A stretch of 64,000 nucleotides of DNA from an uncultured Acidobacteriota bacterium (GTDB taxonomy: Bacteria; Acidobacteriota; Blastocatellia; RBC074), in NCBI GenBank assembly GCA_963796275.1, contig CAWCKY010000006.1:1600001-1664000 (forward strand), given 5' to 3'. The first letter of the stretch is position 1; each line of letters begins with the position of its first letter. This document shows positions 20,266-41,875 of the stretch, in pieces. The position numbers were made by a program, and so were the translations under genes. Below the pieces are notes generated by a model. It made no database searches and was not told the DNA's origin. It was given only the letters and a program-made list of their open reading frames with translations.

Positions 20266-20300
20266 CTTTTTGGTTTTTTCGTGAACCTTTCAGTTTAGAT

Positions 20301-20544: not shown

Positions 20545-20545
20545 G

Positions 20546-22602: not shown

Positions 22603-22611
22603 GACGTATTT

Positions 22612-23898: not shown

Positions 23899-23915
23899 AA
23901 TGGTCCCCCTATGTG

Positions 23916-24803: not shown

Positions 24804-24821
24804 CGCATCAACACTTCTTCC

Positions 24822-25082
24822 TTAAGCAATCTTTTGTAATTGATCTATACACGAAATGAACTCGGCGATCTTCGCTATCGTCTTGAAGTTGTCAATTTCG
24901 ATCGCATCTACAGGGATAGCCGTTCCAAATTCCTGCTCGAGGCAGACCAGCAGTTCGACGAATGTCAGCGAGTCTAAAAGCCCTTCTTCGACGAGGTCTG
25001 TAACAACAGAACTGACCTCCAGATTGAGTTTATCGGAGAAAAGCTTGGTGATCTTTGGGTATAATGCTTTTGCATCTAACAT
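24822..25082 (-). CDS. Acyl/aminoacyl carrier protein (DltC-like)
   Basis: 86 aa, acidic, with a GLLDSL phosphopantetheine motif and LEQEFG..NFKTIAKI. Confidence 0.9.
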   Translation of the reverse strand: MLDAKALYPKITKLFSDKLNLEVSSVVTDLVEEGLLDSLTFVELLVCLEQEFGTAIPVDAIEIDNFKTIAKIAEFISCIDQLQKIA

Positions 25083-25183
25083 TTTGATTCCCTGCTTCGG
25101 ATTCAGATGAGTATTCAGGTTTGAGGATTGCGGAATTTTGGTTGTGTCAAGTCTGTATGATTGCGACCGCTTTGGTAGTTAAT

Positions 25184-25425
25184 TGAGGACTGGGCAAATT
25201 AAAGTTGATTGTTATCAGTAGTATCTGTTTGGCTCCGTATGAGCCCGATGTTTATAGCTTAGATGATAATGTTCATCGCAAGCTCCGGAGGAGCGACATC
25301 TGAACGCCTATATGCCGTTCCTTCGGAGCTTACGAGGTTTGGATGATCGAGTGCTAAAAATATTTCGCGCCGCTGGCGCTCGGGACCAACAACATTACAA
25401 TGATCTTTTATTTGCACAGTCCTCA
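25184..25425 (-). mobile_element. ~242-bp MITE/REPIN-like element, family A copy 3, both terminal repeats intact
   Basis: TIRs TGAGGACTGGGCAAAT / ATTTGCACAGTCCTCA (15 of 16 match). Outer arms are reverse-complementary to those of copies 1 and 2. Confidence 0.8.
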
Positions 25426-25519
25426 GTCACTTCGTTTATCCTGATAACGGTGACAACGGCTGAATGGTCGAGGCGATAGCCTCCCGGATTGTCAAACCAG
25501 CCATTATCTTTTCTATATC

Positions 25520-26362
25520 TTAAGGTTTGAATAACTCATTGTTCATATTTTGTCGTTCGCCTAGTATCCACCTGCGAAGTAGAGTATACCGCCTCATACC
25601 GAGCGCAGCGCGAGGTATATGAAGAAGTGACCAACGTAGTACCTCTCTCTGGACATTATAGTTGCAATACCTTCGGATATCTGCAGTAGAGGTATTCTCA
25701 CGGATTGCAATTCTTCTCAAATTGAATAAAGACATATTCGGGTTGTTTATGCCGGGTTTGGAGGTACAGAGCATTTTGAGGCCCACCTCTTTCGCAGAGG
25801 AAGCTATTATCTCATTCCAATCACCGCCTGGCATTGAAGCGGATTCAATTGGTTGTTGCAAAAGAGATTCTAGATATTGTTTGCATGCTGATAATTCCAG
25901 CTTTATTTCTGCGCGAGAACAGCTTGATAGCATGCGATGAGTTTTCCCATGAACTCCGACTTCCATACCAGCCCTTGCGGCATTCAATATCAAGCCTTGA
26001 TCGCAAAATCCTTTTCGCCCTACAAAATCTTGCGTAATGAAGAAGGTAGCCTTAAACCCGAATTCAATCAGCAAAGGAACAGCTGTTTCAAAAGCACCCC
26101 GCCATCCATCATCGAAGGTCAGAATTACCGTTTCGCCGTCGCTGCTGCTGATAGATTCTGAGGCGGTTATGACCCGATGCCCTGAAGCCTTGATGGCAAT
26201 CAGATGTTGAGTGAAGACATCTTTGGGAACGTGATACATTGCAGCGGAACGGGGAATGCCGGATACCGGATCTTTCTGGTAAATGTCATGATACATAAGC
26301 CAGATTGACTCTGTTTCCTGTACCGAAACCGATTTCGCTGCATGTTTATTGGCTTGATTCAC
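25520..26362 (-). CDS. Polysaccharide deacetylase (CE4/NodB-like)
   Basis: LMYH, LTFDDG, GVHGKTH and SMPGG motifs. Confidence 0.88.
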   Translation of the reverse strand: MNQANKHAAKSVSVQETESIWLMYHDIYQKDPVSGIPRSAAMYHVPKDVFTQHLIAIKASGHRVITASESISSSDGETVILTFDDGWRGAFETAVPLLIEFGFKATFFITQDFVGRKGFCDQGLILNAARAGMEVGVHGKTHRMLSSCSRAEIKLELSACKQYLESLLQQPIESASMPGGDWNEIIASSAKEVGLKMLCTSKPGINNPNMSLFNLRRIAIRENTSTADIRRYCNYNVQREVLRWSLLHIPRAALGMRRYTLLRRWILGERQNMNNELFKP

Positions 26363-26365
26363 AGC

Positions 26366-27415
26366 TTATCTTGGCTCCCTGGTCTCACGGTCTCCCCAGC
26401 GTTTTCGGAAACCGGCCAGCCCGGCGAGAAATCCGAGCCCGAAGGCGAAGTGGATCGTTGCGAAGCAGAGGGGTAGCGCCAGCCGCAGCCGCCATCCCTG
26501 CTTTCGAACCGTAATTAGAGAAGCACATATGTTGGCGAGCGCGTAGATACCCAGGGTCAACGCGAATACCAATCCGGCTGCCGTTGAGAGCGGAGTCATT
26601 AACATTGATAGCATCAAGCAGGAGATGAACAGTAGGGGGACGAACTGACGCATGCGCATCTGCCGCGGCGTCTTCTGCATTATGCGTACTTTCCAGTATC
26701 CGTATTGGAAATATTGACGCCAAAGAGAGCTGATCGAGCTTCGGCTGTAATATCGGGAACGTATGTCGGCGGCCAGCAGTATCTTTCCCCCGATCCTGCG
26801 CAAGCGGTAGTTATAATCGTCATCCTGATTGCGGACCAACTCTTCATCGAAGTATCCCACACGCTGCATAATGGAGCGTGTGTAAGCAGGGAACGCAATA
26901 GTATCCGCTGCCATGGTTCTATCTTTCACGATGCGGAAAGCGGAATTGCCAACTCCAAAAGGCGAGCTCATAGCTAAAGCTATCGTCCGGGCAAGAGGTG
27001 TCTCTCCCACTGTCTCTATCGGGCCGCCCACGCCATCGACGCCATCATTCTGGAGGTGCTCAACGCAGCGACGAACGTAATCCCTTTCGATTACACAATG
27101 ACCATCAACGCGAATAAATACCTCTCCGTTCGCGCGGAAAATGGCGGCGTTCAGGCCCGTAGGCGCGATCTTACCCGTATTATCGATCATCAGAATATTT
27201 GGGTGCCGGTCTTGAAACGTGCGGATGATCGCTCGTGTGCCATCGGTTGACATACCGTCAGATACGACTACCTCCATAAGGTTTACCGGGTAGTCCTGCG
27301 CCATCACTGCATTCAGACTGCGGGCGATGTAACGAGCCTCGTTGCGTACGGGGAGGACGACAGTTACGAGCGGCAGGCTGATAGCATTGGGTGATTCGGA
27401 ATCGGTACAATACAT
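26366..27415 (-). CDS. Glycosyltransferase family 2 (ExoA-like)
   Basis: PVRNE, DGMSTDGT, RVDGH, RNQDDD and QYFQYGYWK motifs, with C-terminal TMs. Start is uncertain (27415 or 27442). Confidence 0.9.
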   Translation of the reverse strand: MYCTDSESPNAISLPLVTVVLPVRNEARYIARSLNAVMAQDYPVNLMEVVVSDGMSTDGTRAIIRTFQDRHPNILMIDNTGKIAPTGLNAAIFRANGEVFIRVDGHCVIERDYVRRCVEHLQNDGVDGVGGPIETVGETPLARTIALAMSSPFGVGNSAFRIVKDRTMAADTIAFPAYTRSIMQRVGYFDEELVRNQDDDYNYRLRRIGGKILLAADIRSRYYSRSSISSLWRQYFQYGYWKVRIMQKTPRQMRMRQFVPLLFISCLMLSMLMTPLSTAAGLVFALTLGIYALANICASLITVRKQGWRLRLALPLCFATIHFAFGLGFLAGLAGFRKRWGDRETREPR

Positions 27416-27527
27416 CGGGATATATCCAACTACCGGGAGCACGAGGAAAAACGGAATTTGTCGAATTCCATGTGCTCTCCGTGCTTCCCATGTTAGGTTT
27501 TTGTGTGTGTTAATCTTGGGTGTTCGG

Positions 27528-29513
27528 TTAGGGGATGTTAAAAACGCGCATCCACATCTCCAACGACAATATCCTGAAGAGGCCCAGATAGGACTCGGTG
27601 TTCGCTGAGTCTGCCTTTGCAGAACTATACCATCGGCGCAGAGCCGCGGCGTCTATATACTTTTGGCAGCGGAGATCGTCGCCGATCATCTCGGTCGTAA
27701 ATTTGCGCAGGTCTTGCGATAGCCAGATACGATCCGGGGCTGCGAAACCTAGCTTGCTTTTACGGAGCCTGACAGACTCGGGCATCATATTTTTCATCGC
27801 CTGCCTGATCGCGAATTTGCTCCAGCCGTTCCGCACCTTGAGGTTATCCGGTAAGGAGATGCCATACTCGACGAGCTTGTGATCCAGGAGCGGCACGCGA
27901 GCCTCGATTGAAAACGCCATAGAGGAGCGATCTTCCAGGCGCAGGAGCTGTGGAAGCGTATCGATCTGAATGTCGTCGATCTGTATCCGCTGCATGGCCG
28001 TCCACGGCCCATCACCGTTCCGTTTACCGGAAGCATTGCGCCACCATCGGGTTGCCGGTGTGCTGCCGTCTGAAATGACTTGACTGAGATCGGCTCTCAA
28101 AACCTCTTGTAATACCGAATCCACTTTCATAAACCGGCGAATGTTATGAGGAAGGTAACGAAAGCCATTCCGCAGGTTCAGCACATAACGGTCACCCTGA
28201 CTTACGGTAGCTCCCAGCTCGCGTAACATTCGAAGTACGCGGCCATCCTTCAGCAATGAGGCAAAATATGCATAACGGAACTTCGCGTAGCCTCCGAATA
28301 CTTCGTCGCCCCCCTGGCCATCGAGCAATACTTTGACCCCGGCTTCCATTGCCGCACGCATGACTCGCCACTGAGCGTAGAAGCTGAACCCCCCAAATGG
28401 CATGTCCTGGTGCCAGGCCATTCGCTGGAAGTCTTCCCGGAAGTCCTCGGCTGTCGGGAAGACGAGCTCTGGAGTTGCGTCTACTGATCGCGCAACGGTC
28501 AAGGCATATTCACGTTCATCGATTTCTCTATATTTATAGCAGGATGTGAATGTACGTAGACTGTCTCCGATCGCGGTAGCCGCCTCAGGGTGTTCACCGG
28601 ATATTTTCCCTATCAGAGAGACCACTGTCGATGAGTCGAGGCCACCGCTCAGGCAGCTACCCACTCGCACATCGCTTATCAGGTGTTTGCGCATAGTCTC
28701 CAACAACAACTCCCTCAACTGCTCTATATGTTCATCGTCTCCTGCGCCATTCGCCGGTTGCGGTACTAGATGCCAGTACCTGTTAACCATGATTTGTCGG
28801 GTCCTGCTGTCAAGCCGCAGCGAGTGAGCCGCAGGCAGCGCTCTCAGGTTCCGGACAACCGTACGCTCCCCATAATCGCAATTACCATGCGCCAGAAAGC
28901 CGAGTATCGCCTCGTCATCTGCTACCGCTTCTATTCCGGGAAATGACAGGAGAGCCTTGATCTCGGATGCACAGATAAAATAACCGGCGGCGACGGCATA
29001 ATAGAATGGTTTTATTCCAAACCTGTCGCGAGCGCAGAATAGTTGCCTCCGTCGGCTATCCCAAATTGCGAAGGCATACATTCCCTCGAGCTGATCCAGG
29101 CAATCCTCGCCCCAATGGAGGTATGCTTGCAGGAGCACCTCGGTGTCCGTCCGGGTTCTGAAGATGTATCCCTTAGACTTGAGCTCGGACCTGAGTTCCA
29201 AATGGTTATAGATTTCGCCGTTAAAGACGATCCATATGCTGCCATCACCCACTGACATTGGCTGTAGCCCGCGATCAGTCAGGTCTATGATCGCGAGGCG
29301 GCGGTGCCCCAATGCAACCTGAGCCGCGGTTTTCGCCTCCCATCGGTCCGTGTTCTGTAGAAAAGTATGATGATACCTCCCATTTTGAAGCGAGCCTATA
29401 ACGAACCCCTCTCCATCCGGTCCACGGTGCGCTTGCCGATCGTTCATTCGTTGCAATGCTGCTAGGTCTACCGGCCTTCCATCGAGACTAACTATTCCTA
29501 CTATCCCGCACAT
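27528..29513 (-). CDS. asnB: Asparagine synthase (glutamine-hydrolysing) family amidotransferase, polysaccharide-associated
   Basis: Intact MCGIVG, HRGPD, FNGEIYN, LSGGLDSS, GQGGDE and RVPLLD motifs. Confidence 0.9.
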   Translation of the reverse strand: MCGIVGIVSLDGRPVDLAALQRMNDRQAHRGPDGEGFVIGSLQNGRYHHTFLQNTDRWEAKTAAQVALGHRRLAIIDLTDRGLQPMSVGDGSIWIVFNGEIYNHLELRSELKSKGYIFRTRTDTEVLLQAYLHWGEDCLDQLEGMYAFAIWDSRRRQLFCARDRFGIKPFYYAVAAGYFICASEIKALLSFPGIEAVADDEAILGFLAHGNCDYGERTVVRNLRALPAAHSLRLDSRTRQIMVNRYWHLVPQPANGAGDDEHIEQLRELLLETMRKHLISDVRVGSCLSGGLDSSTVVSLIGKISGEHPEAATAIGDSLRTFTSCYKYREIDEREYALTVARSVDATPELVFPTAEDFREDFQRMAWHQDMPFGGFSFYAQWRVMRAAMEAGVKVLLDGQGGDEVFGGYAKFRYAYFASLLKDGRVLRMLRELGATVSQGDRYVLNLRNGFRYLPHNIRRFMKVDSVLQEVLRADLSQVISDGSTPATRWWRNASGKRNGDGPWTAMQRIQIDDIQIDTLPQLLRLEDRSSMAFSIEARVPLLDHKLVEYGISLPDNLKVRNGWSKFAIRQAMKNMMPESVRLRKSKLGFAAPDRIWLSQDLRKFTTEMIGDDLRCQKYIDAAALRRWYSSAKADSANTESYLGLFRILSLEMWMRVFNIP

Positions 29514-29514
29514 A

Positions 29515-29594
29515 ATAATTGATAATTGATAATTGATAATTGATAATTGATAATTGAAAGTTGATAGTGTTAGTTAATAGTTGATAGTGTTAGT
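29515..29594 (+). repeat. Heptamer tandem repeat (ATAATTG)n with variants
   Basis: Six ATAATTG units, then AAAGTTG/ATAGTTG-type variants. Confidence 0.9.
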
Positions 29595-29825
29595 TATTGA
29601 CATTCAGTTGGTCGTTTAACGCCCATGCCGAATTGCCGGGTAGCGGCAGGGATGAGTCTAATCTGGAGTTTCAACGCCTGCACTGGCATCCATCGTCGCT
29701 AGAAGGTGTACATTTCGTGCGAAAGTTTGAGGATAAAGCGTTGAAAACGCCGGGTTACATCCATAGCGTCGCGATGTGGCGGAATCGAAGCAAACAATCT
29801 TTGTTAAACCGATTGCCTGAAGCTC
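29595..29825 (+). repeat. REPIN-like element, family B copy 2
   Basis: Direct repeat of 19311-19554 with small indels. Confidence 0.8.
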
Positions 29826-29910
29826 AATGATAGTTGATAGTTCGTATAAACTGTGGCCACGATCTATACAAATTATCAATTATCAACTATCAATTATCCA
29901 TTATTAACTG
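29826..29910. repeat. Heptamer tract continuing after the element, then its inverted complement (CAATTAT)n
   Basis: ATGATAGTTGATAGTT ... AATTATCAATTATCAACTATCAATTATCCATTAT. Confidence 0.7.
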
Positions 29911-29911
29911 C

Positions 29912-30895
29912 CTACTTTTTCATGACAGACCTGTAGATACCGATCAGTCTGTCCGCAAGTACCTTCTCATCCAGCTCTTCGACCGCCTCACGGCCGTTTA
30001 TCCTCTCTCCCCTTCGCAGAACGCGTTCGAGTGAGACTGCAATAGTCTCGGGCGAATCATCCGAACATATCTCGCATCCTTGAACGCCATGCAGGCGCAT
30101 AACCACATCACCGACGATCACTGATACGACCGGCAGATTGCATGCGAGAGCCTCTTTCACTACGGTTGGCGAGCCCTCCTGAAAAGAGGTCATGACAAAT
30201 ACATCACACGCATGCATCAGGACGAGGATGTCTCTGTGCACCATCTTCCATCCAGTGATCAACCGGGCAGGTAACCTCTTATTGAGCTGATCGACGGCTC
30301 GTTTGGCGAGTCCGTATCGTTTATATGGATCATCGGGGTTCCCGACGAACAGGACCAATCGTTCATCGAGCGGGAGCCCCAACTGGCGACGCGCCTCTCC
30401 CTGCGGCATGTTCGGCAACGCATCCATATCCACGCCGGTTGGGAGCAGGTGCAGCGGGACAGATGCCGGGATGTGGGCCCGCATCTGGTCGGAGACTATG
30501 ATCACCGCATCGGCTCTTATTGAGATCAGTCGCGACAGCCACTGCAGAAGCCTGCCTCTCAGCGTCGGGCGGCCATCGTCGCCCTTGATGCCCAGAATGT
30601 CGTCTCCATGAAAAGTCACGACGAGCGGCATTTGCCTGGGCCAGGGAAGCAGGGCGCTTTGGCCGAATTGAGCATGAACCAGATCGTACCGGCTCGGGTC
30701 GATCTGCTTCCGCAGCCGGCTCCATGCCCTCACGTAGTTCATCGGATTCTGCGCACCGCGGTATGAGAAGATATCCACCTCGACGCCCGCCCGTCGCAGG
30801 AAGTTCACTTGCTGCACGAGGAAGGGAACGGCGTGTGGATATTCGGTAGTTGGCCAAGCGTTTGAAAGCATCAAAACGCGTATTTTATCATTCAT
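29912..30895 (-). CDS. Glycosyltransferase family 4
   Basis: HAQFG, TFHGDD and SFQEGSPTVVKEALAC (EX7E) motifs. Confidence 0.9.
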   Translation of the reverse strand: MNDKIRVLMLSNAWPTTEYPHAVPFLVQQVNFLRRAGVEVDIFSYRGAQNPMNYVRAWSRLRKQIDPSRYDLVHAQFGQSALLPWPRQMPLVVTFHGDDILGIKGDDGRPTLRGRLLQWLSRLISIRADAVIIVSDQMRAHIPASVPLHLLPTGVDMDALPNMPQGEARRQLGLPLDERLVLFVGNPDDPYKRYGLAKRAVDQLNKRLPARLITGWKMVHRDILVLMHACDVFVMTSFQEGSPTVVKEALACNLPVVSVIVGDVVMRLHGVQGCEICSDDSPETIAVSLERVLRRGERINGREAVEELDEKVLADRLIGIYRSVMKK

Positions 30896-30929
30896 ATGGA
30901 CTGCTCAGTCATACCCGCCGTTAGTCCCT

Positions 30930-32241
30930 TTAAGCGTTGCCATTTTTGATTACAAACCCTCGTTGGCTAGACCTGACCCAATTACTACGTATTGAGTAAC
31001 AGCCGGCGACCAGTGCATACGCGAAGATAAGCCAGGTTTGCTTGGCTGCCTGCAGAGGTACGGTCATGTTGACCGTCAGGACGGATAAGGTAAGTGCAAA
31101 AGGTAGAATCCCATATATACCAGCGCGCGCCTTCCACCCTCCCCAAACACAGAGTCCTATACAAATGAAGAGCGGAATGCCTCCCGCTACTCCGGTTGAT
31201 GTTAGTACCTCTAGCACCAGGTTATGGCTGTGCTTGGTGTTACGTTTCTTACTTTTGCTGCCGAATTCGAAATGTTTTGTCCGATTATACAGTTCGTATT
31301 GTTGATTGCTCGGTCCCCAGCCGAGGATCGGTTTTTCATTGATCATTGCGGTCGCCGCGGGGAAGATATATTGACGGCCTGCCATATCTCCCCGCTTGAC
31401 CGATTTATTGTACCGGCTCTTCATCGGCTCGGTATTTATAACTATCCAGCCGGCAATACCTATCGCCGAGAGGACGATTATGAAGTTCCTGAGCATTTTT
31501 CCGATATTCCCACGCTTCAGAGTGAACGCGAGGATGCCAATGCCTAAGCCGAGCATCCCACCGCGTGAGCCGGTCATCACCAGGCAAACAGCGATGAGCG
31601 CCATCATTGGCCAGAAGATCAAGCGGTATCTCGGCTTATTGGTTTGCAGGCCGTAAGAAAGACCGATAAGCGTGATCAATCCCAATGCCATGTTGGCAGC
31701 GACAGTATTCGGATCTTGACCGAGAACCGTCACTCGGTCGCCTTCGGTCTCAGAATGATAGACGGTAGTTCCAATTCCCATTATCAGCAGGGAGGCCAGT
31801 ACTGTGGTGGAGATGGCGAAACTGAGAAAAGTAGTTTTGACTATCGTATCGAATCGTAACAGATTATAGCTGGCCCAGAAGAGGAATGCAGCTTGGAGCA
31901 TATTGAAAAAGAATATCGTTGCATTGGGAATATCCGTTGAGTAGAGCGCCATCAAAGCCAAATAGACGAATAGATAGATGGCGAGCCACCAAAAAGCCTT
32001 GGGCGGTTTACGAAAACAGACTTTTGGTTGAAGTAATGCGGTCAGAAGGAAGATCGATCCGGTTATGGTATGCACTTCCACTGGAATCGACCTCGGCGGG
32101 TACTCAAATGGGATCGACATTACAAACACATAGAAGCTCCAGCGAACAATGGGTATCTACGGCGAGGTAAGTTGGCCGGTGTCTGATGGGGTGAGCGGGT
32201 GGAATGCCGGCGGGCACTACCGCTGCGAATGGGCCTCTCAT
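30930..32241 (-). CDS. wzy: Wzy-like O-antigen polymerase/ligase family protein; frameshift near 32152 in the 5' part
   Basis: Polytopic membrane protein with TGSRGG, PILGWGP and HSHNLVLEVL motifs. The ATG at 32241 joins IVRWSFYVF if one base of the GGG at 32151-32153 is removed. Confidence 0.75.
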
Positions 32242-32252
32242 TGGCCTGATTA

Positions 32253-35108
32253 TTAGACCGGGATGAGCCATTTATCTATATCGTAACTAGCCACAGATGC
32301 ACAGTGGCTGCGCAAGATGATGCTTATTGGCCGGGGTCCGGGGTCACCAGTCAGGTATGACGACCCTATGACCTTCAGATCATCACTCAGCATTGTCTTT
32401 AACAAGTTGGGGAAGTATTCGATACGCTCCGAATCGCGGCCCTCATAGACCAGGATACGCCAGGGGATGGAACATAAACTTTCAAGCACGCCGTCATAAG
32501 CGCCACCCGCGACATAATAGACGACCGCATCGGTCAACCTGGGCTGTAGGGCTTCGGGTATGTCGTCTTCCAATCGATATCTCTCTGCGAGGTTGGCGCC
32601 TATGAGGTAGAACCTGGTCGCTCCAGAGGCGAGCAGGAATAGCTCGGAATCCGCCACTACTTCGGGCTTATCCCATCCGATGCCCCAGGCAGCCCCCGCG
32701 ACCAGTGAGGAGTACAACCTCGCTCCTGAGTTGCACCCGATATCCAGTACGACTCGCCCGGCCAGTCCCATCGAAGACTTTTCCAATACATCATTGACGA
32801 ATGACCACTGCCTCGCGCTATTCCCGTTGCCGTGACTCGCGTTCGAGCCGATCAGCCGTGACCAGGCGTTCGGTTGGGATAAACCGAAATTCTGGAAGTC
32901 TATGTACTGAACGCGTCCCAGACTGTTCGAGTAGATGAGGTTTCTGTTGCAGTGCGGCTCCATGAAGTCGATGTTCTCTTCCCACTTTGGGATCAGTATG
33001 CGTAGCTGTGTGCTTGCATTCAGCTGCCTGAGTTGATCAATGAATGATACATATTGTTGTGGCGTAGGACACTCACCGCTCACATGGTCGACAGCAAAGA
33101 CCGAGTAAGACTTTCCTTGCGCCTTCCAGCAAGCCAGGTCCCAGATTCTTGGTCCGATACCGAACGAGTACATGAGGTTTGCCGCAGCCAACCTGTCTTG
33201 TGGCGTCCCGAGTAACCTCTTCAGCACAATGAGAGATTTACGGTGGTTATAAAGGTATCTGGCTTTCGCCGGATGTCGAAAATCTTTGAGAATTTTGAAT
33301 CCTGTTCCTGGCCGGTAGAAATTGACGATGGACGGAATAAGGTCATTCAACCTTTCCTGTGGTGGGATATAAAATGTATGACCTCCCTCGTTCACCTCCA
33401 GGCCTTTTCCTCGAAGCCATCCGAGGAGTTCGCCGGGGGAGTCGCAATGGGGAAAGGGAACGTCCCAAGCCATCGCCAGTTGCCTGGGCGTCTTGCTGAA
33501 GATCCCATTATGAATACCAACAGCTCCCCAGTGGCCGTTCTGAATTATATGACGCAAGACCAACAGGTTATCGTATATGACCTCTATAACTTTAAATGCC
33601 ATCCGGTTTTGGCGCAGGTAGGTCTTGAGAGTTGGCTTCAGGTTATCGGTGAAGTATTGTTTTACTTTATCGCTAGAGCCGAGGGAACACATGTTTAACC
33701 ACCGATCCGGCAGTAGCAGCGCCGCCGAAATGACTCCTATGAGCGACATCGCAAATGTCGCAGCAAGAATAACCAGATGAGGCAATTGAGCGCCTCGCAA
33801 CAGGAGAGTTACCGGCAATGCGAATGCGACGACCGATGCCCCCAAGGCCAGCCCCGGCAGTTGGGATAAGTAGAACTCTCTCCAAGTAGATTCCGTCAGG
33901 TAGATGCTCAGCCGTCCCAGCAACAGGTAGATGACGGCAAGAGCGGCGACGACGCCGACCGCCACACCATTGATCCCGAATGATGCGCCCGCCACAGAGC
34001 CTGCGATTACACAGGCCGCATAAACGGTATGGCACCAGAATTTCAAATAGACCGCGCCTTTTGCCCGAGCCAGCGAATCCCCAAGGTTATAGATTGAATG
34101 AAAGACGCCGCCCAGGCAGAGGATCTGAAGGGACGCGATAGCGCCCGTCCACTGCGGACCGAAGACGCCTGCCATAACTTCCGGGGCAGCGATGGCGAGC
34201 GAGGTCAGCAGAGGGATTACTACAATCGTGGAAAAAAAGACCGAGGCGATATATGCGCGCCTCAGCGCTCGCGTGTCATCCTGCATCCTCGAATAGACGG
34301 GGAAGAGCACATAGCTGATCACCGAAGAGAACTGATACATCGGTAATGAGATCAGTTGATAGGTCCGTGAGTAGAGGCCCAAATCCGTCGCGCCGAGCCA
34401 GCGGCCGACGACGAAGTAATCGCCGTTCCGCGCGGCATAATTCGCGAGCCGTGAGAGGCTCGACCCTACCCCGAAGTTCAGGAACTGTCGCGTCTCGATC
34501 CGTGCAAAACTTGGCCGCAGCGGGTGTGGGGAAGCTACGAAAAGTAACACCGCCCTTAATACCGACTCGATCACGATCGCCCAGGCTAATGCCCATACAC
34601 CCCGGTCCGATAGAGCGAGTATTACCCCCACCAGCGCATAACCGACCGAATACGATGACAACTCAACTACGAAGAGTTTTCGGTAGTCGAGCTTCCGTTC
34701 GAGAAGGGCCGCCGATGTTGAGCTGAGACTCGAAAGAAGAAATGATAAGGATATGAACCGCAGCAGCGGCGTGACAGCATCGTTGCGAAATACCGCAGCA
34801 ACCAGCGGCGCGCCGGCGTAGATTCCCGCAGTGATCGCCATACCGCTCGCCACCGAGACCGTGAATGCAACGCGTATATGAGTTTTGGTCAGCTCTTTGC
34901 ATTGTATAACCGCAGGAGCCATACCGATCTGTGATATCCGGTATGCGAGGTTCATCACGATCATCACCAGAGTCAGCAGCCCGAATGCTTCCACCGGGAG
35001 AAGCCTCGCCAGGATAATGGTGACGATCAGGCGTAGAACGAATATCGATGACTCGGAGAGGAAGCGCCAGGCAAATGCGCCCATCGTTCGCTCAAATAGT
35101 GGTTGCAT
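32253..35108 (-). CDS. wzx: Wzx-type flippase fused to kinase-like and SAM-methyltransferase-like domains (951 aa)
   Basis: First ~470 aa: ILARLL..FG, DYFVVGRWLG..LGLYSR. C-terminal half: EGGHTFY, FKILK, DF..CNRNLI, YIDFQ, then VLDIGCNSG. Confidence 0.8.
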   Translation of the reverse strand: MQPLFERTMGAFAWRFLSESSIFVLRLIVTIILARLLPVEAFGLLTLVMIVMNLAYRISQIGMAPAVIQCKELTKTHIRVAFTVSVASGMAITAGIYAGAPLVAAVFRNDAVTPLLRFISLSFLLSSLSSTSAALLERKLDYRKLFVVELSSYSVGYALVGVILALSDRGVWALAWAIVIESVLRAVLLFVASPHPLRPSFARIETRQFLNFGVGSSLSRLANYAARNGDYFVVGRWLGATDLGLYSRTYQLISLPMYQFSSVISYVLFPVYSRMQDDTRALRRAYIASVFFSTIVVIPLLTSLAIAAPEVMAGVFGPQWTGAIASLQILCLGGVFHSIYNLGDSLARAKGAVYLKFWCHTVYAACVIAGSVAGASFGINGVAVGVVAALAVIYLLLGRLSIYLTESTWREFYLSQLPGLALGASVVAFALPVTLLLRGAQLPHLVILAATFAMSLIGVISAALLLPDRWLNMCSLGSSDKVKQYFTDNLKPTLKTYLRQNRMAFKVIEVIYDNLLVLRHIIQNGHWGAVGIHNGIFSKTPRQLAMAWDVPFPHCDSPGELLGWLRGKGLEVNEGGHTFYIPPQERLNDLIPSIVNFYRPGTGFKILKDFRHPAKARYLYNHRKSLIVLKRLLGTPQDRLAAANLMYSFGIGPRIWDLACWKAQGKSYSVFAVDHVSGECPTPQQYVSFIDQLRQLNASTQLRILIPKWEENIDFMEPHCNRNLIYSNSLGRVQYIDFQNFGLSQPNAWSRLIGSNASHGNGNSARQWSFVNDVLEKSSMGLAGRVVLDIGCNSGARLYSSLVAGAAWGIGWDKPEVVADSELFLLASGATRFYLIGANLAERYRLEDDIPEALQPRLTDAVVYYVAGGAYDGVLESLCSIPWRILVYEGRDSERIEYFPNLLKTMLSDDLKVIGSSYLTGDPGPRPISIILRSHCASVASYDIDKWLIPV

Positions 35109-36654
35109 AATGAGGCGAAGATTCTTTTATCAACTCATGTTCCCAGCCATGCTGGCATACGAGTCGAGAGGTACCCTCGTTACCCAGGAACTTGACATTG
35201 CTGTATACCGGATCGCGATAGTCAGTTACCTTGCCGCTTTCGATGGCCTCGATAACCTGCTTAACTCCCAGATTCACAGTCCATTTGGGCACAAACCCGA
35301 GAACATTGCGTATCTTGTTGAAGTTGACCCGGTAATTCCGGCGGTCAGCGTCCGGTCCCAGATCGATGATCTGAGCAGAGGGAACCAGTCGATTGATCAT
35401 TTCACCGACCATGTTGATGGTGTAGTTCTGTTCATTCGAACCGACGTTGAAGGTCTGATTCCTTACCAGCGGGAAGGGAGCTTCCAGAGTCTTGAATACG
35501 GCGCGCGCCGCATCGTGCACGTGCAGAAATGGCCGCCATTGATCACCGCCGCGAATAGTTATCTGTCCCTCGATGAGAGCTTTCGCAGTCAGCAGGTTGA
35601 TCACCAGGTCGAAGCGGGTGCGCCCGGAAAGGCCGTAGATGGTGCCGAAGCGCAGCACGCTGGGAGCGAAGCTGTGATCGGTCATGCTCATCAGGACCCG
35701 CTCGGACGCGATCTTGCTTCGCGCGTAGAGTGAAACGGGATTCAGTTCGGAGTGTTCATCCAGAACTTCGTCGCAGGCTCCATAGACGGAACAGGTGCTG
35801 GCGAAGATAAATCGACTGACTCCGCTCCCCTTGGCGACCTCGGCGATCATGCGCGTGGCCATCAGGTTGACCTCGATAGTCAGGTCTTCATCGAGCGCGC
35901 AGGCCGGATCGCCGACGATCGCGCCCAGATGTATCACCGCATCCATGTTTTTCGTAGCCTGCACGACTTTATCGACCTGCCGGAAATCAGCCCGCATAAT
36001 CTCCAGCCTCGGGTGACCCAATAGTTCCCGTATCGCATCAGAGCCGTAGAGGAACAGGTCGAGCAGTCGCACGCGATACCCTTTATCCAGTAACATCGGC
36101 AGTAGAGCAGACCCGATGTACCCGGCGCCCCCGATGACCAGGACATTTTTCACCTTATTATCATCGCTCTGCTTATAATTATGGATCTCCGCACGGACCA
36201 CGCTCGACCAGAGTGACGACCATATCCGCGAACCAACCAGAAAAAATATGCTTAAGAACCATGCGTAGAGGTATGTGCCGCGTTGCAGGCCCGGACCTTT
36301 CATGAAGTAAGAAAGGAAGCCGAATAGCAGATAAGCCAGGCTGACGGCGTGGGTTACAACCAAGGCCTTGTATCGTCCGCGGTAAACCCGGCCGTACGTA
36401 TAAAAGCCGCTGAGAGAGAAGACAAAGAGACAGACCAGTGTAAGCTGCAGGGCACTGTTTCGGTATCCGATCAGGTTATTCCAGAGGACTTGCTTGTAGC
36501 TGGCTCCATTCCCGTCATTCTCTGTAATTATGAAGTGAACCAAACGGATAACTATCGAGGTCAGAACCGCCGCATTGATGAGCAGGGTATCGGCGATGCC
36601 TCGTAACACCATTACCTTAGTAACACGCAAGTGAGACAGTAGATTCATCGTCAA
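35092..36654 (-). CDS. NAD-dependent epimerase/dehydratase with an N-terminal multi-TM domain
   Basis: About four TMs, then IGGAGYIG, HLGAIVGD, STCSVYG and YARSK. Confidence 0.88.
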   Translation of the reverse strand: MTMNLLSHLRVTKVMVLRGIADTLLINAAVLTSIVIRLVHFIITENDGNGASYKQVLWNNLIGYRNSALQLTLVCLFVFSLSGFYTYGRVYRGRYKALVVTHAVSLAYLLFGFLSYFMKGPGLQRGTYLYAWFLSIFFLVGSRIWSSLWSSVVRAEIHNYKQSDDNKVKNVLVIGGAGYIGSALLPMLLDKGYRVRLLDLFLYGSDAIRELLGHPRLEIMRADFRQVDKVVQATKNMDAVIHLGAIVGDPACALDEDLTIEVNLMATRMIAEVAKGSGVSRFIFASTCSVYGACDEVLDEHSELNPVSLYARSKIASERVLMSMTDHSFAPSVLRFGTIYGLSGRTRFDLVINLLTAKALIEGQITIRGGDQWRPFLHVHDAARAVFKTLEAPFPLVRNQTFNVGSNEQNYTINMVGEMINRLVPSAQIIDLGPDADRRNYRVNFNKIRNVLGFVPKWTVNLGVKQVIEAIESGKVTDYRDPVYSNVKFLGNEGTSRLVCQHGWEHELIKESSPHYATTI

Positions 36655-36681
36655 AACTTTCTTTTTGGTGGAAGTCAGACC

Positions 36682-36775
36682 ACCTCAACGGCGCAGAGAA
36701 CGCTGATGGTGAGCTGAGGTCATATGATCCCGGCTATGCCTCCGCACACCTCAGCGTTCTCTGCCCAACTGAGGT
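36682..36775. repeat. Imperfect palindromic intergenic element
   Basis: ACCTCAACGGCGCAGAGAACGCTGA ... TCAGCGTTCTCTGCCCAACTGAGGT. Confidence 0.65.
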
Positions 36776-36791
36776 TAACCGGTAATCTTCA

Positions 36792-39215
36792 CTACGTTTT
36801 CTTGGCACCGGGGGCATTATCACGTGTGTAATTTGAGTAATAGTTATGGTTTTTACCATTCTGCGCATCGACGTTGTTTAGCACGACTCCCAGAATGTGC
36901 CCTCCCACGTGGAAAAGCTTTTGCCGCGAGCGGCGCACGGCATCACGATTACTCTTACCCATGCTCACGACGAGGATTACGCCGTCGACCAGGGTCGATA
37001 GTATCACCGGGTCAGCCAGGTTGATCATGGGTGGGGAGTCTATGATGATGTGATCGTAACGCTGTGAAAGCGCCTGTAGCATTTCCTTCATCCTTTGCGA
37101 GCTGATCAACTCGGCCGGTCTCTCCGGGATAGAGCCGCTCGGAAGCAGCGAGAGGTCGTGAATATTGAGCTTTTTGATGACAGTGTTCAGTTTCGCATTA
37201 CCTGAAAGGTATTCTGATAGACCAGGCCTGGAATTAATGCCGAGTTCTTTATGAATGCGTGGTGTGCGAAGATCGCAATCGATAATTAACACCGATTTTC
37301 CCAGCTGCGCCAGGCTCACTGCGGCGTTGATGGTTGTAGTGGTTTTTCCTTCGCCCGGTTGGCTGCTCGTGATCAGCAGCGTCTTGCACGAATTGATCTC
37401 GACTGAGAGCATCAGGGACGCGACCAGCAAGCGGTAGGCTTCGGCTGCCTGTGAATGACTATCGAGCCTCACCGTGTAAACAGGAAAAACTTCGTCTGGT
37501 GTTACCGCAGTTAGCGGGATTTCTTGCGTCGCGATTATCGAGGTAACTGTTGTGTTTTGATCTCCCGCAGGGAAGTGCCTGTCCGGCCCCTTTTGTGAGA
37601 TTGTTCTACGGTGGACCGGGCCAATAGTCGGGATTGCAGCGAGCGCGGGCAATTGCAGGTAGCGGTCGATGTCGTCGACGCTCTGAATTGTCTGGTCGAA
37701 GTATTCAATGAGTATTGTAAGTCCGATCCCCAGGATCAGGCTGAAGAGCATGCTGATCAGTATCCATTGCTTGCGGTGGGGGCCGGCGTCCTGCCTCGGC
37801 ACACGCGCGTACTCGACCAGACGCAAGTTGTTCTCCTGCTGGGCCATCTCGAACTTGGCCTGGTTGCTTTTTTCGAGAAAGCTCCGGAAGAGAGACTTGG
37901 ATGTTTCAACTTCCTGTTGGAGAACGCCGAACTGTATCGTCTCCTGATTCTCCTGTGCGCTCTCCTGTTTCGCCTGTTCCAGCGCTGCTTTGAATGCGCC
38001 TTCATCGCGTATAGCGCGCTCGAAATCGTTCTTAAGTTTTTCACCCATCGTTTTGCTGGAAGATTCCAACTGCTTTCGGAGGGCTGCTATCTGCTGGTTC
38101 ACCTCGATGGTTTGCGGGTTCTCGGGGCCGTAATTGACGTCGAGCTGTGCGGATCGAAGTGTGAGTTCACTCAGCTTTTTCTGTAGCTCTGATACTATCG
38201 GATCAGCGAAAGCTTCAGGGATCAGCGTGGCACGGCCAAGTTTCGCCTCCTCAAAGAGCGATCCCTTGATGATGCGATCGGTTTCGGCACGCGTGACCTC
38301 GCCCTGAAGGCGCGCGACTTTTTCGGCGCTCAAGGAGCCCTTACCCAGCGGTGCGATGATAGTGTGAGCCCGAGTATAATCGGCCAGCGCCTGTTCGGAC
38401 TTCTCAGCCCGCGACTTGAGCTCTCGCGTTGTACGGTCAAGCCAGCCCGATGTCTCCGAGAACTTGCTGGCTTTGCCCTGGAAATTGCGCTGAATGAAAA
38501 ACTGAGCGAGACGGTTGCAGACGGTGGCGGCGAGAACCGGATCGGAGTGCGTAAATTTGATCTTGATCAGACGTGTGTCTGAGATGGCTTCCACCGAGAG
38601 CAATTCGTCGAATAACGCTACATAAGGCTCCAGGCGCCAGCTTTCCGCCGCGGTAAGTTGGTGCGGCGGGATGCTCTTAGCATCGGGTATAACTGACGAT
38701 GTGGGGACATCCAAAGCGGGGTTCTCAGCTGGTCTCATTTGTATTCGGTCGACGATGCTCTTGAATGTTTCCCGGATCGTCCTTTTCTCCGGTCTCAACA
38801 ATCCCGGTTGGTGATCGAGCTTCATGTCGACTATCACATCTTCAATCAGCGGGATGCTATTGAGCATGAAGAGCTTCGTCTTCATGCTCTCGTCGCCCTG
38901 GATGACCAGATCATTCTCCCCATACTTGATCAACGATGTATCCTCTTTGCCGACCGAGACGATGGCATATGACTGATAAGTCTCTTTCCTCCGGTACATT
39001 TCGAAAGTAACGAGTGAAGTGACGAAGAGAACCAGTAAAGCGATTGACCATTTGCGCTTTAATATTCCTCTCAAGCATCTTGATAGGTCAATTCCCGAGT
39101 TTCCATCATCTGCGCCATAACCATTGTTATTGGTATCCTGGTAATCGACCCGGGGATAAGAAAATGTCTCATTCGTCAGCTGGCGGCGTTCTAGTGCGGT
39201 TCTATCATCTGACAT
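36792..39215 (-). CDS. wzc: Wzc-like polysaccharide co-polymerase / tyrosine autokinase
   Basis: Two TMs flanking a coiled-coil domain; Walker A GEGKTT, IDCDLRTP, IIIDSPP; C-terminal YYSNY. Confidence 0.9.
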   Translation of the reverse strand: MSDDRTALERRQLTNETFSYPRVDYQDTNNNGYGADDGNSGIDLSRCLRGILKRKWSIALLVLFVTSLVTFEMYRRKETYQSYAIVSVGKEDTSLIKYGENDLVIQGDESMKTKLFMLNSIPLIEDVIVDMKLDHQPGLLRPEKRTIRETFKSIVDRIQMRPAENPALDVPTSSVIPDAKSIPPHQLTAAESWRLEPYVALFDELLSVEAISDTRLIKIKFTHSDPVLAATVCNRLAQFFIQRNFQGKASKFSETSGWLDRTTRELKSRAEKSEQALADYTRAHTIIAPLGKGSLSAEKVARLQGEVTRAETDRIIKGSLFEEAKLGRATLIPEAFADPIVSELQKKLSELTLRSAQLDVNYGPENPQTIEVNQQIAALRKQLESSSKTMGEKLKNDFERAIRDEGAFKAALEQAKQESAQENQETIQFGVLQQEVETSKSLFRSFLEKSNQAKFEMAQQENNLRLVEYARVPRQDAGPHRKQWILISMLFSLILGIGLTILIEYFDQTIQSVDDIDRYLQLPALAAIPTIGPVHRRTISQKGPDRHFPAGDQNTTVTSIIATQEIPLTAVTPDEVFPVYTVRLDSHSQAAEAYRLLVASLMLSVEINSCKTLLITSSQPGEGKTTTTINAAVSLAQLGKSVLIIDCDLRTPRIHKELGINSRPGLSEYLSGNAKLNTVIKKLNIHDLSLLPSGSIPERPAELISSQRMKEMLQALSQRYDHIIIDSPPMINLADPVILSTLVDGVILVVSMGKSNRDAVRRSRQKLFHVGGHILGVVLNNVDAQNGKNHNYYSNYTRDNAPGAKKT

Positions 39216-39330
39216 TGGTGATTTCTCTACTGGAACAGAGATTTTTGAGAGGAATTATAGGAATGAGATAGATCCTAGAAAAAAAGTAAAATCCTGTCAT
39301 TTCCATTTTTTGCGATGGGCTGAGTGCTAC

Positions 39331-40677
39331 CTATCGACCTCTCTGTGAAGAGTTTCCGATAAACTCATGAGCGCCTATATCGAAACCTTTCCCCTGCGGC
39401 CTGATGCACCAGCTTTTATCAAATGGCGCTTCAGGCATATTCATACCCTTATCTATTGCAGCACTGTCCGGAAGCAGGCGGAAATCCAACGCCGAAAGAT
39501 TGATAAATTTCGGATCGGTGAAGAGAAGGTTATCGATCACCGCAACACCCATTTGTGGCATCCGGTCCGTTATGCTTTTTGCGGTCGTCAGGTTGTTGCT
39601 TATTACTACGTCGATGAACCGGGCGGAACCGACATCAATGGCAGCATCGGTTGGTTGGTGGAAGATATTATTGACTATTCTGATGTCGGTCATATCGCTT
39701 CCGCCGCCAATGACGATGTGCCCCGTCTGGTTGGGATTCGGCCCGGAAAAGGTGTTGTGCGCGATAACAGTTCGCGACCTGGTATGAGGGTACTCCTGAA
39801 TCGCCCATCCGCGCTGATGGTTGTAGAAGATGTTATTGCGGATCGTAACGTCGTTTCCCCGAGAATGATATATGCCATGATCATGGTTTTGCCAGAATTT
39901 GTTGGACGGATTACATCCACCTTCTCCAGGCGCAAAACGTCCGATGTCGTGGATAGTATTTCCCTCTATCAGCACGTTATCACGACCAATATAAATACCT
40001 ACCTGCCCGTTTGTGGTATTGGTGCAATGTCTCCCGATATGATGGATGCGGTTGCCGATGATCTGCACATCATGGCCGCCATTGTACAACTCGAATCCGG
40101 ATGAACTGCCGTCATTGCCCATTCCATAAACGTCGAAACCCTCTATCCGGATATACGCCGCTTTCGAAGAAGCAAACCTGAAGCCGTTTTGCACCTTGTT
40201 CTTCTCACCGTCAATCCTGGCTCCCCCTGGGTTCCTGGACTTGAACACTACCCAGTTATCAGGAGCTCCTCCTCTCGTCAGACAGACAACCGCCGTAAAG
40301 CGATTACATGACGGATGTGGCGACCCCATCGTATAGACGCCATCCTCGACGATAACTGTGTCACCGGGATTGACGGTATCGGCAGCTTTTTGAATTGTTT
40401 TGAATGGAGATGTCCCGCTACCGGGATTGGAATCAGTACCAATTGTCGAGACGAAGTATTTCATCCCTCTTACCAAAAATCGGGTGTTCGGCGACGTTTG
40501 CCCGCAGACCGAAGAGACTGTCTCTGAAACCGCCGGATTCGGATTTTTCCGTTGTTTTCGCGCAGCTGATGTAGCCCGATCCGAATCGGTCGCCGGAGCT
40601 GGATTCTGTGTGGACGATGTATTCGCCAGTATTATGAGGAAGAAGATGATGATTTTAGTTGCTTCAAGAGTGCCCAT
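39331..40677 (-). CDS. Secreted right-handed beta-helix protein (pectate-lyase-like fold)
   Basis: Signal peptide, YFVS..GTDSNPG..PFKTIQKA, PGDTV.V.DGVY, repeated I.NN.F units, C-terminal DFRL..AID.G..DIGA.E. Confidence 0.8.
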   Translation of the reverse strand: MGTLEATKIIIFFLIILANTSSTQNPAPATDSDRATSAARKQRKNPNPAVSETVSSVCGQTSPNTRFLVRGMKYFVSTIGTDSNPGSGTSPFKTIQKAADTVNPGDTVIVEDGVYTMGSPHPSCNRFTAVVCLTRGGAPDNWVVFKSRNPGGARIDGEKNKVQNGFRFASSKAAYIRIEGFDVYGMGNDGSSSGFELYNGGHDVQIIGNRIHHIGRHCTNTTNGQVGIYIGRDNVLIEGNTIHDIGRFAPGEGGCNPSNKFWQNHDHGIYHSRGNDVTIRNNIFYNHQRGWAIQEYPHTRSRTVIAHNTFSGPNPNQTGHIVIGGGSDMTDIRIVNNIFHQPTDAAIDVGSARFIDVVISNNLTTAKSITDRMPQMGVAVIDNLLFTDPKFINLSALDFRLLPDSAAIDKGMNMPEAPFDKSWCIRPQGKGFDIGAHEFIGNSSQRGR

Positions 40678-40681
40678 CGAA

Positions 40682-41747
40682 TTACCACCTCGGGATTCGC
40701 ACGATGCTTGTACCTAGCCCGGAGAGTAATGTACCGCCGACCGATTTGAATCGGCTGTTAGGTACAATGATAACGTCGTTAGCGAAGATGGGGATATCAT
40801 CCTTTTTGCCGTTCATCACCGATGCTATATCCACCTTTATCTCCTGCCTTCTTCTGGTTACCGGGTCTTCGCGGAATATCAACCCGCTGCCGGCTGCGGC
40901 CTTGAATGTTGTCCCCTGTGCGAGTGATATCGCCTGTCTGAGTGTGGTGCCTTCTTTAAATGGGAAAGACCCAGGAGCGTGGATACTCGCCGGCGACGAA
41001 GAACACGTCGGCTGGCGGTATATTGATGATGCTACCAGGTTCGACGTACATATTTTTATCGAAGTCCCCTCTAAATAACCCGCTGATACTCACTCTGATC
41101 AGTTCGTACATATCCTCTTCTTTTTCTTTACTTTCCTGTGATTCAACCGGTGATTCATCTCCATTGGGGGTGTCAGCTACAGCGCGATGTAAGATGGGAG
41201 TGCTCATCGGCTGCTTCACCTCACGGATGATGAAGGCGCTCGTCCCATGATTAATACTCAACCCTCCGGCGACGATAATCAGTTTCATGAGCGTCGGCTT
41301 GCCTTCGAGCTGGTACGCACCAGGGCGGTTGACCGCTCCTTGAATGAAGAAGGTATGGCTGTTTAACTGTTCAATCGTAATGGATACGCGAGGGTTTTTG
41401 AGATATCGTCCGCGCAGACCATCGGCGATAAGCGCGGCCAATTCTTCCTGAGTCTTATTCTGAACGGTCATCCGGCCGAGAAAATCCAAGCTGATTGTGC
41501 CTGAAGCAGACACGCGAAATTCACCTGATAACTCGGGCGCTCGGTCGATGTTGATGCCGATCACATCGCCGGGGCCGATTCGATAGTCCTCTTTTGTTTC
41601 AGCAATGGCGCGAGTGAGACTCGCTTCGTCCAACGGTTGGGGCCGTGGGCGGCTCACCGGACCTTGTTGAGCCGATTGCGCCGTGCATACCAGGGGAGAC
41701 CAGGATGCTACGAGACAAAGCAAGAGAAATTGATACTTGGTTAGCAT
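40682..41747 (-). CDS. wza: Wza-like polysaccharide export protein (Poly_export + SLBB); frameshift near 40985
   Basis: YRIGPGD, G.ISL..LG, YLKNPRV, GAVNRPGAY and FFVAGE, then in another frame HAPGSFPFKEGTTLRQAISLAQG..ANDVIIVP. Confidence 0.85.
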
Positions 41748-41821
41748 AGTGATTCTCCACGGAAAATCAGTAGGCAATCCGCATGGATTGTGGCAGCAAT
41801 GTTCACGAAACTGAGCAGCAG

Positions 41822-41875
41822 ACACACCCCACCCACAAACTTCAAAACCATAAAGGAAACCTCATGCCGAGGCAG
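41822..41875 (-). promoter_or_regulatory. Conserved upstream motif, copy 1 (shared with the capD-like leader)
   Basis: Plus strand ACACACC-N18-ACCATAAAGGAAA-N5-TGCCGAGGCAG. Confidence 0.45.

Follow-up and report, generated by a model that had tools for sequence, protein, structure and literature searches.

WbdD of Escherichia coli O9a and Klebsiella pneumoniae O3 phosphorylates a sugar and then methylates the phosphate (PMC3482155, PMC7685785). WbdD and ORF6 of K. pneumoniae O7 are unrelated methyltransferase-kinase pairs, both of which install methyl phosphate on glycans (PMC3482155, PMC11231755). TacF, a MOP flippase of Streptococcus pneumoniae, has been described to monitor the cytoplasmic phosphocholine decoration of its lipid-linked substrate during transport (PMC13385700), and a Wzx/Wzy cluster of Actinoplanes contains separate kinase-like and methyltransferase genes (PMC13390465). 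Here we analyze a gene in which a Wzx flippase is fused to a kinase-like and a methyltransferase-like domain. The gene lies in a stretch of 64,000 nucleotides from an uncultured Acidobacteriota bacterium (Blastocatellia; GenBank assembly GCA_963796275.1, contig CAWCKY010000006.1, positions 1,600,001 to 1,664,000), which we refer to as the window and whose own numbering is used throughout. A preliminary description of the window had proposed that the fused domains might phosphorylate or phosphomethylate lipid-linked repeat units in a step coupled to flipping.

A Wzx flippase fused to a two-domain module

The gene, stop codon included, occupies positions 32253..35108 of the minus strand and, according to the list of open reading frames (ORFs) and its translation, encodes 951 amino acids, a Wzx flippase followed by a kinase-like/methyltransferase-like module. 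The frame begins with ATG, contains no internal stop, and overlaps at its start by 17 nucleotides with the stop of the upstream epimerase-like ORF (35092..36654). Residues 1 to ∼472 (33693..35108, minus strand) were assigned to the Wzx/PST family (MOP) of flippases by Pfam, NCBIfam, and hydropathy. In Pfam, residues 32 to 324 matched PF13440 (Polysacc_synt_3; E value of 1.9e-74, 251 bits versus a cut-off of 23) and residues 14 to 276 matched PF01943 (E value of 6.4e-28, 98.4 bits versus a cut-off of 28.2), the fused protein being the sole PF13440 match within the window. The NCBIfam model NF007773 ("MOP flippase family") spanned residues 6 to 460 with 231 bits; since this score is below the equivalog cut-off of 273, the protein is a Wzx family member and not a WzxC equivalog. 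In a crude hydropathy scan, hydrophobic segments extended from residue 21 to residue ∼471, and the last 480 residues were hydrophilic. By sequence, the N-terminal ∼470 residues are those of an ordinary Wzx, and the preliminary description was right that this domain continues, with no stop in between, into a soluble part, which we put at ∼475 residues.

We number the module from protein residue 477 (module residue 1), so that module residues K129, D238, and D261 correspond to K605, D714, and D737 of the whole protein. As modeled by AlphaFold2 (AF2), it starts with a basic helical hairpin linker (residues 477 to 536, module 1 to 60; 33501..33680, on the minus strand like all other positions in this paragraph), the helices of which, at module residues 3 to 23 and 26 to 47, have block values of the predicted local distance difference test (pLDDT) of 68 to 89; the segment is also present in close free-standing homologues. 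The linker leads into a truncated protein-kinase-like domain (residues 537 to 751, module 61 to 275; 32856..33500), for which we propose K605, D714...N723, and D737 as catalytic residues, and then into a class I S-adenosylmethionine (SAM)-dependent methyltransferase-like domain (residues 752 to 936, module 276 to 460; 32301..32855) with motif I at residues 787 to 795 and the post-I acidic residue D813. The protein ends 15 residues past this domain, and no coiled coil is seen in the model. Along the chain, EGGHTFY (residues 574 to 580; 33369-33389), GFKILK (residues 603 to 608; 33285-33302), DFMEPHCNRNLI (residues 714 to 725; 32934-32969), and YIDFQ (residues 735 to 739; 32892-32906) precede the SAM motif VLDIGCNSG (residues 787 to 795; 32724-32750). 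All of the kinase-like and SAM motifs named in the preliminary description were thus found, in the order and roughly at the places given there, and they are not chance matches, because they coincide with the best-conserved columns of a family that comprises at least 329 cluster representatives.

With an alignment of 98 sequences, AF2 yielded a confident, rigid didomain (pLDDT of 90.5, predicted template modeling score of 0.90), and the first domain modeled alone reached a pLDDT of 94.1. Structure comparison recognized the bilobal kinase fold of this first domain, with only kinases among the Foldseek matches listed and Rio1 as the best of them (E value of 4e-4). Its structural neighbors include the minimal kinases Rio1/Rio2, Bud32/PRPK, OspG, HopBF1, and archaeal Ark1, and further matches were obtained to DAPK1, BRAF, PknB, and YabT, ranking best, as well as to APH(2''), YihE, and Rv3197. 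Since the structural alignments end just past the DFG-equivalent strand, the domain is best described as a kinase fold cut short, in which the activation segment and the distal C-lobe are missing. As an alternative for this domain, an ATP-grasp fold was rejected, as no ATP-grasp protein was among the structural matches listed. The second domain has the seven-stranded Rossmann-like fold of methyltransferases. Its motif I, VLDIGCNSG, contains D313, G315, and G319, has Asn in place of the middle Gly as in most of the family, and is followed by the acidic D337 in "GWD"; in the motif I region the family profile matched protein arginine methyltransferases (PRMTs) with an E value of 4e-7, aligning "VLDxGCNxG...GWD" with "VLDIGCGTG...GID." Both folds that had been anticipated for the C-terminal half were hence modeled with confidence. 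Structure searches with the full model returned only methyltransferases among the matches listed and no solved structure covering both domains. The viral library BFVD gave generic methyltransferases and kinases only, and a feature search of the ESM Atlas gave mostly phage methyltransferase clusters (0.88 to 0.96) and one "protein kinase" cluster (0.88), which serve as leads only.

The residues expected at a putative nucleotide site are conserved. In the first domain, the columns that vary least over 98 family members are Q67, Y104, P107, Y122-P123, G127, D181 (99%), and H199 (89%), together with the kinase positions K129 (93%), D238 (87%), N247 (88%), D261 (89%), and Q263 (85%). In the main clade of Wzx-fused sequences, K129, D181, H199, D238, N247, D261, and Q263 are each present in 32/32. 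In the strand order of the model, K129 is located on the β3-equivalent strand, "FAVDHVSG" follows β5 in a hinge-like position, N247 precedes a β7-like strand, and D261 follows a β8-like strand. In profile alignments with 22 Pkinase domains from the genome of the window, the VAIK Lys falls on K129, the HRD Asp on D238, the Asn of the catalytic loop on N247, and the DFG Asp on D261; these alignments are not significant and serve as a guide only. We take the first domain to be a shortened kinase-like domain that runs from the N-lobe through the DFG-equivalent strand, probably binds ATP, and contains predicted catalytic residues.

The fusion itself is not confined to this contig. Searching residues 477 to 951 against proteins of 523 to 1,665 amino acids retrieved 38 homologues, in 34 of which Wzx Pfam domains precede the module; module identity in these ranges from 89% down to 38%, and they derive from several sources and assemblies, with contigs of up to 1.1 Mb. 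Three of the four long homologues without Wzx domains sit on contigs of <3 kb. Because the same join recurs in independent assemblies, it is not an assembly artefact. Within the genome of the window, a search identified a single copy, in a 957-amino-acid open frame with no stop inside. The same fusion is found on a named Blastocatellia contig (locus L048) in a syntenic Wzc-epimerase-[fusion]-Wzy-GT4 locus and, as the second fused case among the loci surveyed below, in a Pyrinomonadaceae locus (L051, 2309-4309, plus strand). The fused gene of L051 lies two genes downstream of a gene for a bifunctional ATP-sulfurylase/APS-kinase, which hints at a sulfated polymer there. An apparent 814-amino-acid Wzx with a C-terminal extension in another locus (L061:1998-4439, plus strand) was rejected as the read-through of a run of N.

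An assembly error or frameshift joining two separate genes is a practically negligible explanation. In its favor, related genomes hold free-standing versions of both halves, and public reads over the stretch are too sparse for a full check: five runs contained at most 0.12 of the sampled words, four runs yielded short contigs of relatives, and among the read-derived contigs of these four sparsely covering runs none spanned the whole stretch. One 152-nucleotide contig of a related organism spans positions 33590-33741 without a gap, which speaks against an artefact but is too little for read-level confirmation. The recurrence of the fused frame in 34 of the 38 long homologues and in both L048 and L051, together with the uninterrupted frame in the genome itself, argues strongly against it.

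A module family linked to Wzx genes

With a single query, at least 329 representatives of 50%-identity clusters belong to the module family at an E value of ≤1e-3, and 151 at ≤1e-30. Most members have 440 to 500 amino acids and the free proteins ∼470; eight Wzx fusions were found among 150 listed family representatives. A word-indexed search of proteins of 261 to 832 amino acids gave 41 relatives, 38 of them without any Pfam domain. The C-terminal half of the window protein belongs to no Pfam or NCBIfam family, its sole match being a subthreshold one of the motif I region to Methyltransf_9/CmoB (16.2 to 17.6 bits for Methyltransf_9, under the cut-off of 23.8). When members were scanned individually with Pfam, 51/98 matched Methyltransf_9 at an E value of ≤0.1 (best, 7.3e-6), and such weak methyltransferase matches were the only ones obtained. 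As judged from these searches, the family is covered by neither database.

In a FastTree phylogeny of 175 module sequences, Wzx-fused forms fall into at least three well-separated, supported clades. Labels change 15 times over the tree, but short contigs with truncated gene calls inflate this raw number, and we therefore claim only these "at least three separated clades," whose scatter suggests repeated fusion or repeated fission. Other arrangements were also observed, namely, a glycosyltransferase of family GT2 joined to the module (P0109), PAP2 joined to the module (P0190), the module with a second methyltransferase (P0107), and Wzx fusions with a different Wzx subtype (P0156 and P0180). Among further fusions, P0080 and P0141 combine the module with a C-terminal piece of a sugar C-methyltransferase and with a soluble N-terminal region of 557 amino acids of unknown nature, respectively. 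Free-standing modules, mostly from Pyrinomonadaceae, have an extra soluble N-terminal region of ∼100 to 125 amino acids (e.g., L087:3841-4200, plus strand); 44/63 surveyed loci have 80 to 149 residues ahead of the module, and this region matches neither Pfam nor NCBIfam. In the window protein, the Wzx domain and the helical linker stand where the free forms have this extra region.

The module was present in 4/301 genomes sampled from the phylum, that of the window included. The other three genomes carry free-standing copies in polysaccharide loci, one of them directly upstream of Wzx. For a wider survey, we used one genome per species and the single pattern Y[VI]DFQNFx[LVI], taken from an alignment of 25 sequences, so that members without the motif were not sampled; ORFs were called and clustered, and 97 representatives of 230 neighboring ORFs were scanned with Pfam. 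This gave 63 loci, mostly from Acidobacteriota and otherwise from Gemmatimonadota, Chloroflexota, Pseudomonadota, Methylomirabilota, Armatimonadota, Omnitrophota, and Planctomycetota. Fusion to Wzx was seen in 2 loci and either fusion or immediate adjacency in 43; in 45, Wzx was at most two genes away, and 55/63 loci had some polysaccharide gene at no greater distance. By phylum, fusion or adjacency was seen in 34/48 loci of Acidobacteriota, 5/6 of Gemmatimonadota, 1/1 of Chloroflexota, and 3/3 unlabeled ones; the remaining five phyla contributed one locus each, with 0/1 fused or adjacent in each case. The preliminary description had suggested looking for the same fusion, or for its halves as split genes, in other loci, and both exist: the fusion recurs in the 34 long homologues and the free-standing module occurs next to Wzx. 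With 43/63 loci, the coupling to Wzx is broader than could be seen from the window. Two neighbor families of ∼400 amino acids without a Pfam or NCBIfam match accompany the module in 22/63 and 9/63 loci (representatives L100:2764-3954 and L078:9240-10460, both plus strand), and an AMP-binding enzyme is encoded near it in 7/63.

In the window, the fused gene lies within a Wzx/Wzy-type polysaccharide locus at 19588..41825, encoded entirely on the minus strand and annotated by a Pfam scan of 17 ORFs. Upstream of the fused gene, it contains genes for a Wza-like protein (Poly_export; 40956-41825), a beta-helix protein (39331-40677), a Wzc-like protein (36792-39215), and a membrane-anchored NAD-dependent epimerase/dehydratase of 520 amino acids (35092-36654). 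The hydrophobic N-terminal ∼160 amino acids of the epimerase weakly resemble the N terminus of the exopolysaccharide polyprenyl glycosylphosphotransferase model (TIGR03025, residues 44 to 158), and an epimerase-type gene also precedes the fused Wzx in L048. Downstream follow a Wzy-like protein (Wzy_C; 30930-32129), a GT4 glycosyltransferase (29912-30895), an AsnB-like glutamine amidotransferase (27528-29513; TIGR01536, 455 bits), a GT2 glycosyltransferase (26366-27442), a DegT aminotransferase (22612-23898), and a Bac_transf protein (19588-20265); the locus also holds two deacetylases. The AsnB-like protein scores 397 bits with the model of the XrtA/PEP-CTERM-system amidotransferase, below its cut-off, and in 19/63 related loci an AsnB-type gene is found no more than two genes away from the module. 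Two ORFs of the locus match neither Pfam nor NCBIfam (20546-21664, 372 amino acids, and 23916-24803, 295 amino acids, both minus strand). No ABC (ATP-binding cassette)-transporter family was detected among the 17 ORFs scanned with Pfam. The locus is flanked by an ORF of 1,262 amino acids with a purple-acid/metallophosphatase domain, four Big_7 Ig domains, and fn3 (15470-19258, minus strand) and by a large ORF of 1,710 amino acids (44760-49892, plus strand).

Possible role of the module

Our preferred reading, to which we assign a probability of roughly one half, is that an ATP- and SAM-using didomain decorates the lipid-linked repeat unit at the flippase, the added group perhaps being (methyl)phosphate, as in the case of WbdD. 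The fused protein would be the sole flippase of a Wzx/Wzy-type exopolysaccharide locus, with its cytoplasmic C terminus joined to a rigid two-domain enzyme. Both termini of the Pseudomonas aeruginosa Wzx are cytoplasmic (PMC2932511), and on the basis of this topology and of the cofactors the module is probably cytoplasmic as well. It would act on the cytoplasmic face of the membrane upon the completed undecaprenyl-diphosphate-linked repeat unit, using ATP and, in most family members, also SAM. The decoration would plausibly be phosphate, which might then be methylated, and the decorated unit would pass directly to the attached or neighboring Wzx for flipping. For the phosphorylation or phosphomethylation of repeat units, the argument is one of analogy.

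Several observations weigh against this reading. On the kinase side, hhalign comparison with the 22 Pkinase domains gave only a local match of 23 columns (probability of 2.2%, E value of 0.021) and a nonsignificant global alignment (probability of 0.4%). No kinase family was matched at an E value of ≤0.1 by the 98 members in Pfam, and no kinase by the window protein in NCBIfam; a PDB search with a profile of the first domain built from 62 sequences likewise gave none (E value of ≤10). The αC Glu was not identified in this domain, and the proposed catalytic Asp stands 9 residues ahead of the conserved Asn, compared with the canonical 5, there being a four-residue insertion between D238 and N247. 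On the methyltransferase side, comparing the 118 free-standing members with the 32 sequences of the main fused clade revealed that R286 is Arg in 97/118 versus 7/32, R291 is Arg in 105/118 versus 14/32, H395 is His in 82/118 versus 3/32, and H415 is His in 77/118 versus 3/32; the corresponding residues of the window protein are G, Q, Y, and R. The linker motif "YLYQS.PG...KRD" is missing from the fused clade. Moreover, the kinase-like half of the fused clade has a higher mean pairwise identity than the methyltransferase half (0.588 versus 0.529), the reverse of the free-standing members (0.298 versus 0.346). Given the replaced residues and the lower relative conservation of the methyltransferase half, the window protein may transfer methyl groups in an altered way or no longer at all. 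The fused clade keeps motif I, D337, G353, R356, and E413 (D313 in 31/32, G319 in 30/32, and D337 in 28/32), and D313/G315/C316/G319 of motif I and D337 are also conserved family-wide; the methyltransferase half of this clade appears to be still constrained, with a changed substrate side. Finally, in 8/63 loci the nearest two genes on either side of the module include none for polysaccharides, and the survey counts, including the 43 loci with fusion or adjacency, are not independent, since many loci come from related Pyrinomonadaceae.

In an unlikely scenario, the module would not modify the sugar at all; a kinase-like ATP switch or ATPase, of the kind seen in small RIO/Bud32-type kinases, and a methyltransferase-like domain serving mainly as a scaffold would control or energize flipping or recruit other enzymes to Wzx. 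The tightest conserved partner of the module is indeed Wzx, fused or adjacent in 43/63 loci, and not any particular sugar-pathway gene; the structural neighbors include minimal ATPase-type kinases (Rio1/Rio2, Bud32/PRPK, OspG, and HopBF1), the domain ends just after the DFG-equivalent strand and has no substrate-binding C-lobe, and the fused clade has lost family-typical residues on the methyltransferase side. However, motif I and D337 are conserved even in this clade, and the average identity of 53% in its methyltransferase half indicates constraint. The GT2 and PAP2 fusions point to glycan-lipid chemistry rather than transporter control, and our literature search revealed no ATP-dependent regulator of a Wzx flippase.

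The same two fusions and the repeated fusion or adjacency to the flippase would also be left unexplained by a soluble precursor pathway, in which the kinase-like domain phosphorylates an ethanolamine- or choline-type alcohol, as do LicA/choline kinases, the methyltransferase N- or O-methylates it, and other enzymes later transfer the head group to the polysaccharide. Phosphoethanolamine methyltransferases exist, the small-molecule kinases APH(2''), YihE, and Rv3197 share the fold and were among the structural matches, and, by sequence, the profile of the methyltransferase comes nearest to PRMT N-methyltransferases in their motif I region. Nevertheless, Pfam detected neither a cytidylyltransferase nor a LicD-type transferase among the 17 ORFs of the locus, and an NTP-transferase gene lies near the module in just 1/63 loci, making this route decidedly unlikely. 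The resemblance of the motif I region to PRMTs, along with DAPK1, BRAF, PknB, and YabT as the best structural matches, could alternatively indicate that a protein of the export machinery (e.g., Wzx itself, Wzc, or a glycosyltransferase) is what the module phosphorylates and/or methylates. We regard this as very improbable, as the kinase-like domain has neither the activation segment nor the C-lobe helices to which protein substrates bind, the β-barrel substrate domain of PRMTs is absent, and the methyltransferase domain comprises just ∼185 residues. Furthermore, the kinase of WbdD is also eukaryotic-protein-kinase-like and yet phosphorylates mannose (PMC3482155).

Decoration of the repeat unit at the flippase remains our preferred reading. 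The family offers a testable handle on cytoplasmic decoration coupled to flipping and potentially on the way in which Wzx selects complete and correctly decorated units. It may also predict that Acidobacteriota and Gemmatimonadota, which are abundant in soil, make exopolysaccharides with substituents of the phosphate or methyl type. A bolder version, which we consider unlikely, holds that the module writes an "export tag" (e.g., methyl phosphate) on each finished lipid-linked unit and that the partnered Wzx flips tagged units only. If so, this would be a Wzx/Wzy checkpoint equivalent to the checkpoint formed by terminal cap and carbohydrate-binding module in ABC-transporter pathways, conserved over several phyla and repeatedly hard-wired through gene fusion.

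Comparison with known systems

The flippase half is of the same domain type as other Wzx/PST flippases, such as E. coli WzxC and P. aeruginosa Wzx, and like these it is accompanied in its locus by Wzy, Wzc, and Wza genes. In a literature search, we came across no Wzx described as carrying a cytoplasmic enzyme module and none described as fused to, or as a partner of, a kinase/methyltransferase module, in agreement with the preliminary description, which knew of no characterized example of such coupling. TacF shares the concept of modification before flipping; its decorating enzymes are separate proteins of other families, and the abstract of the cited report describes no physical fusion. The minimal kinases Rio1/Rio2, Bud32/PRPK, OspG, HopBF1, and Ark1 resemble the first domain as compact kinase folds with a reduced C-lobe, but they have no detectable sequence relation to the module, differ in the spacing of the catalytic loop, and are not known to be joined to a methyltransferase or linked with a polysaccharide locus.

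WbdD, like the fused module, combines a kinase-like and a class I SAM methyltransferase domain in one polypeptide, and its substrate is a glycan carried on polyprenol at the cytoplasmic face of the membrane; the chemistry that we propose for the module is drawn by analogy from that of WbdD. WbdD has its methyltransferase at residues 1 to 210, its kinase at residues 211 to 459, and a C-terminal coiled-coil ruler, whereas the module has the reverse order and no coiled coil. The opposite domain order and the ABC-transporter pathway of WbdD had already been pointed out in the preliminary description, and the published account agrees (PMC3482155). WbdD caps the chain end and is not fused to a transporter; the module belongs to a Wzx/Wzy locus, is fused to the flippase, and is proposed to act per repeat unit. 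Unlike that of WbdD, the kinase-like domain of the module breaks off after the DFG-equivalent strand. WbdD chains were absent from the sequence matches and from the structural matches listed, and the latter absence does not exclude similarity. ORF6 of K. pneumoniae O7 is set apart by its description, which places it in an ABC-transporter pathway, with the methyltransferase preceding the kinase and with attached coiled-coil and glycosyltransferase modules (PMC11231755).

The module would represent a third, sequence-unrelated family of kinase-like plus methyltransferase didomains. To our knowledge, every characterized glycan modifier combining a kinase with a methyltransferase belongs to an ABC-transporter pathway. 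The family described here is instead tied to Wzx, by gene order in at least three phyla and by gene fusion in at least three separate clades.

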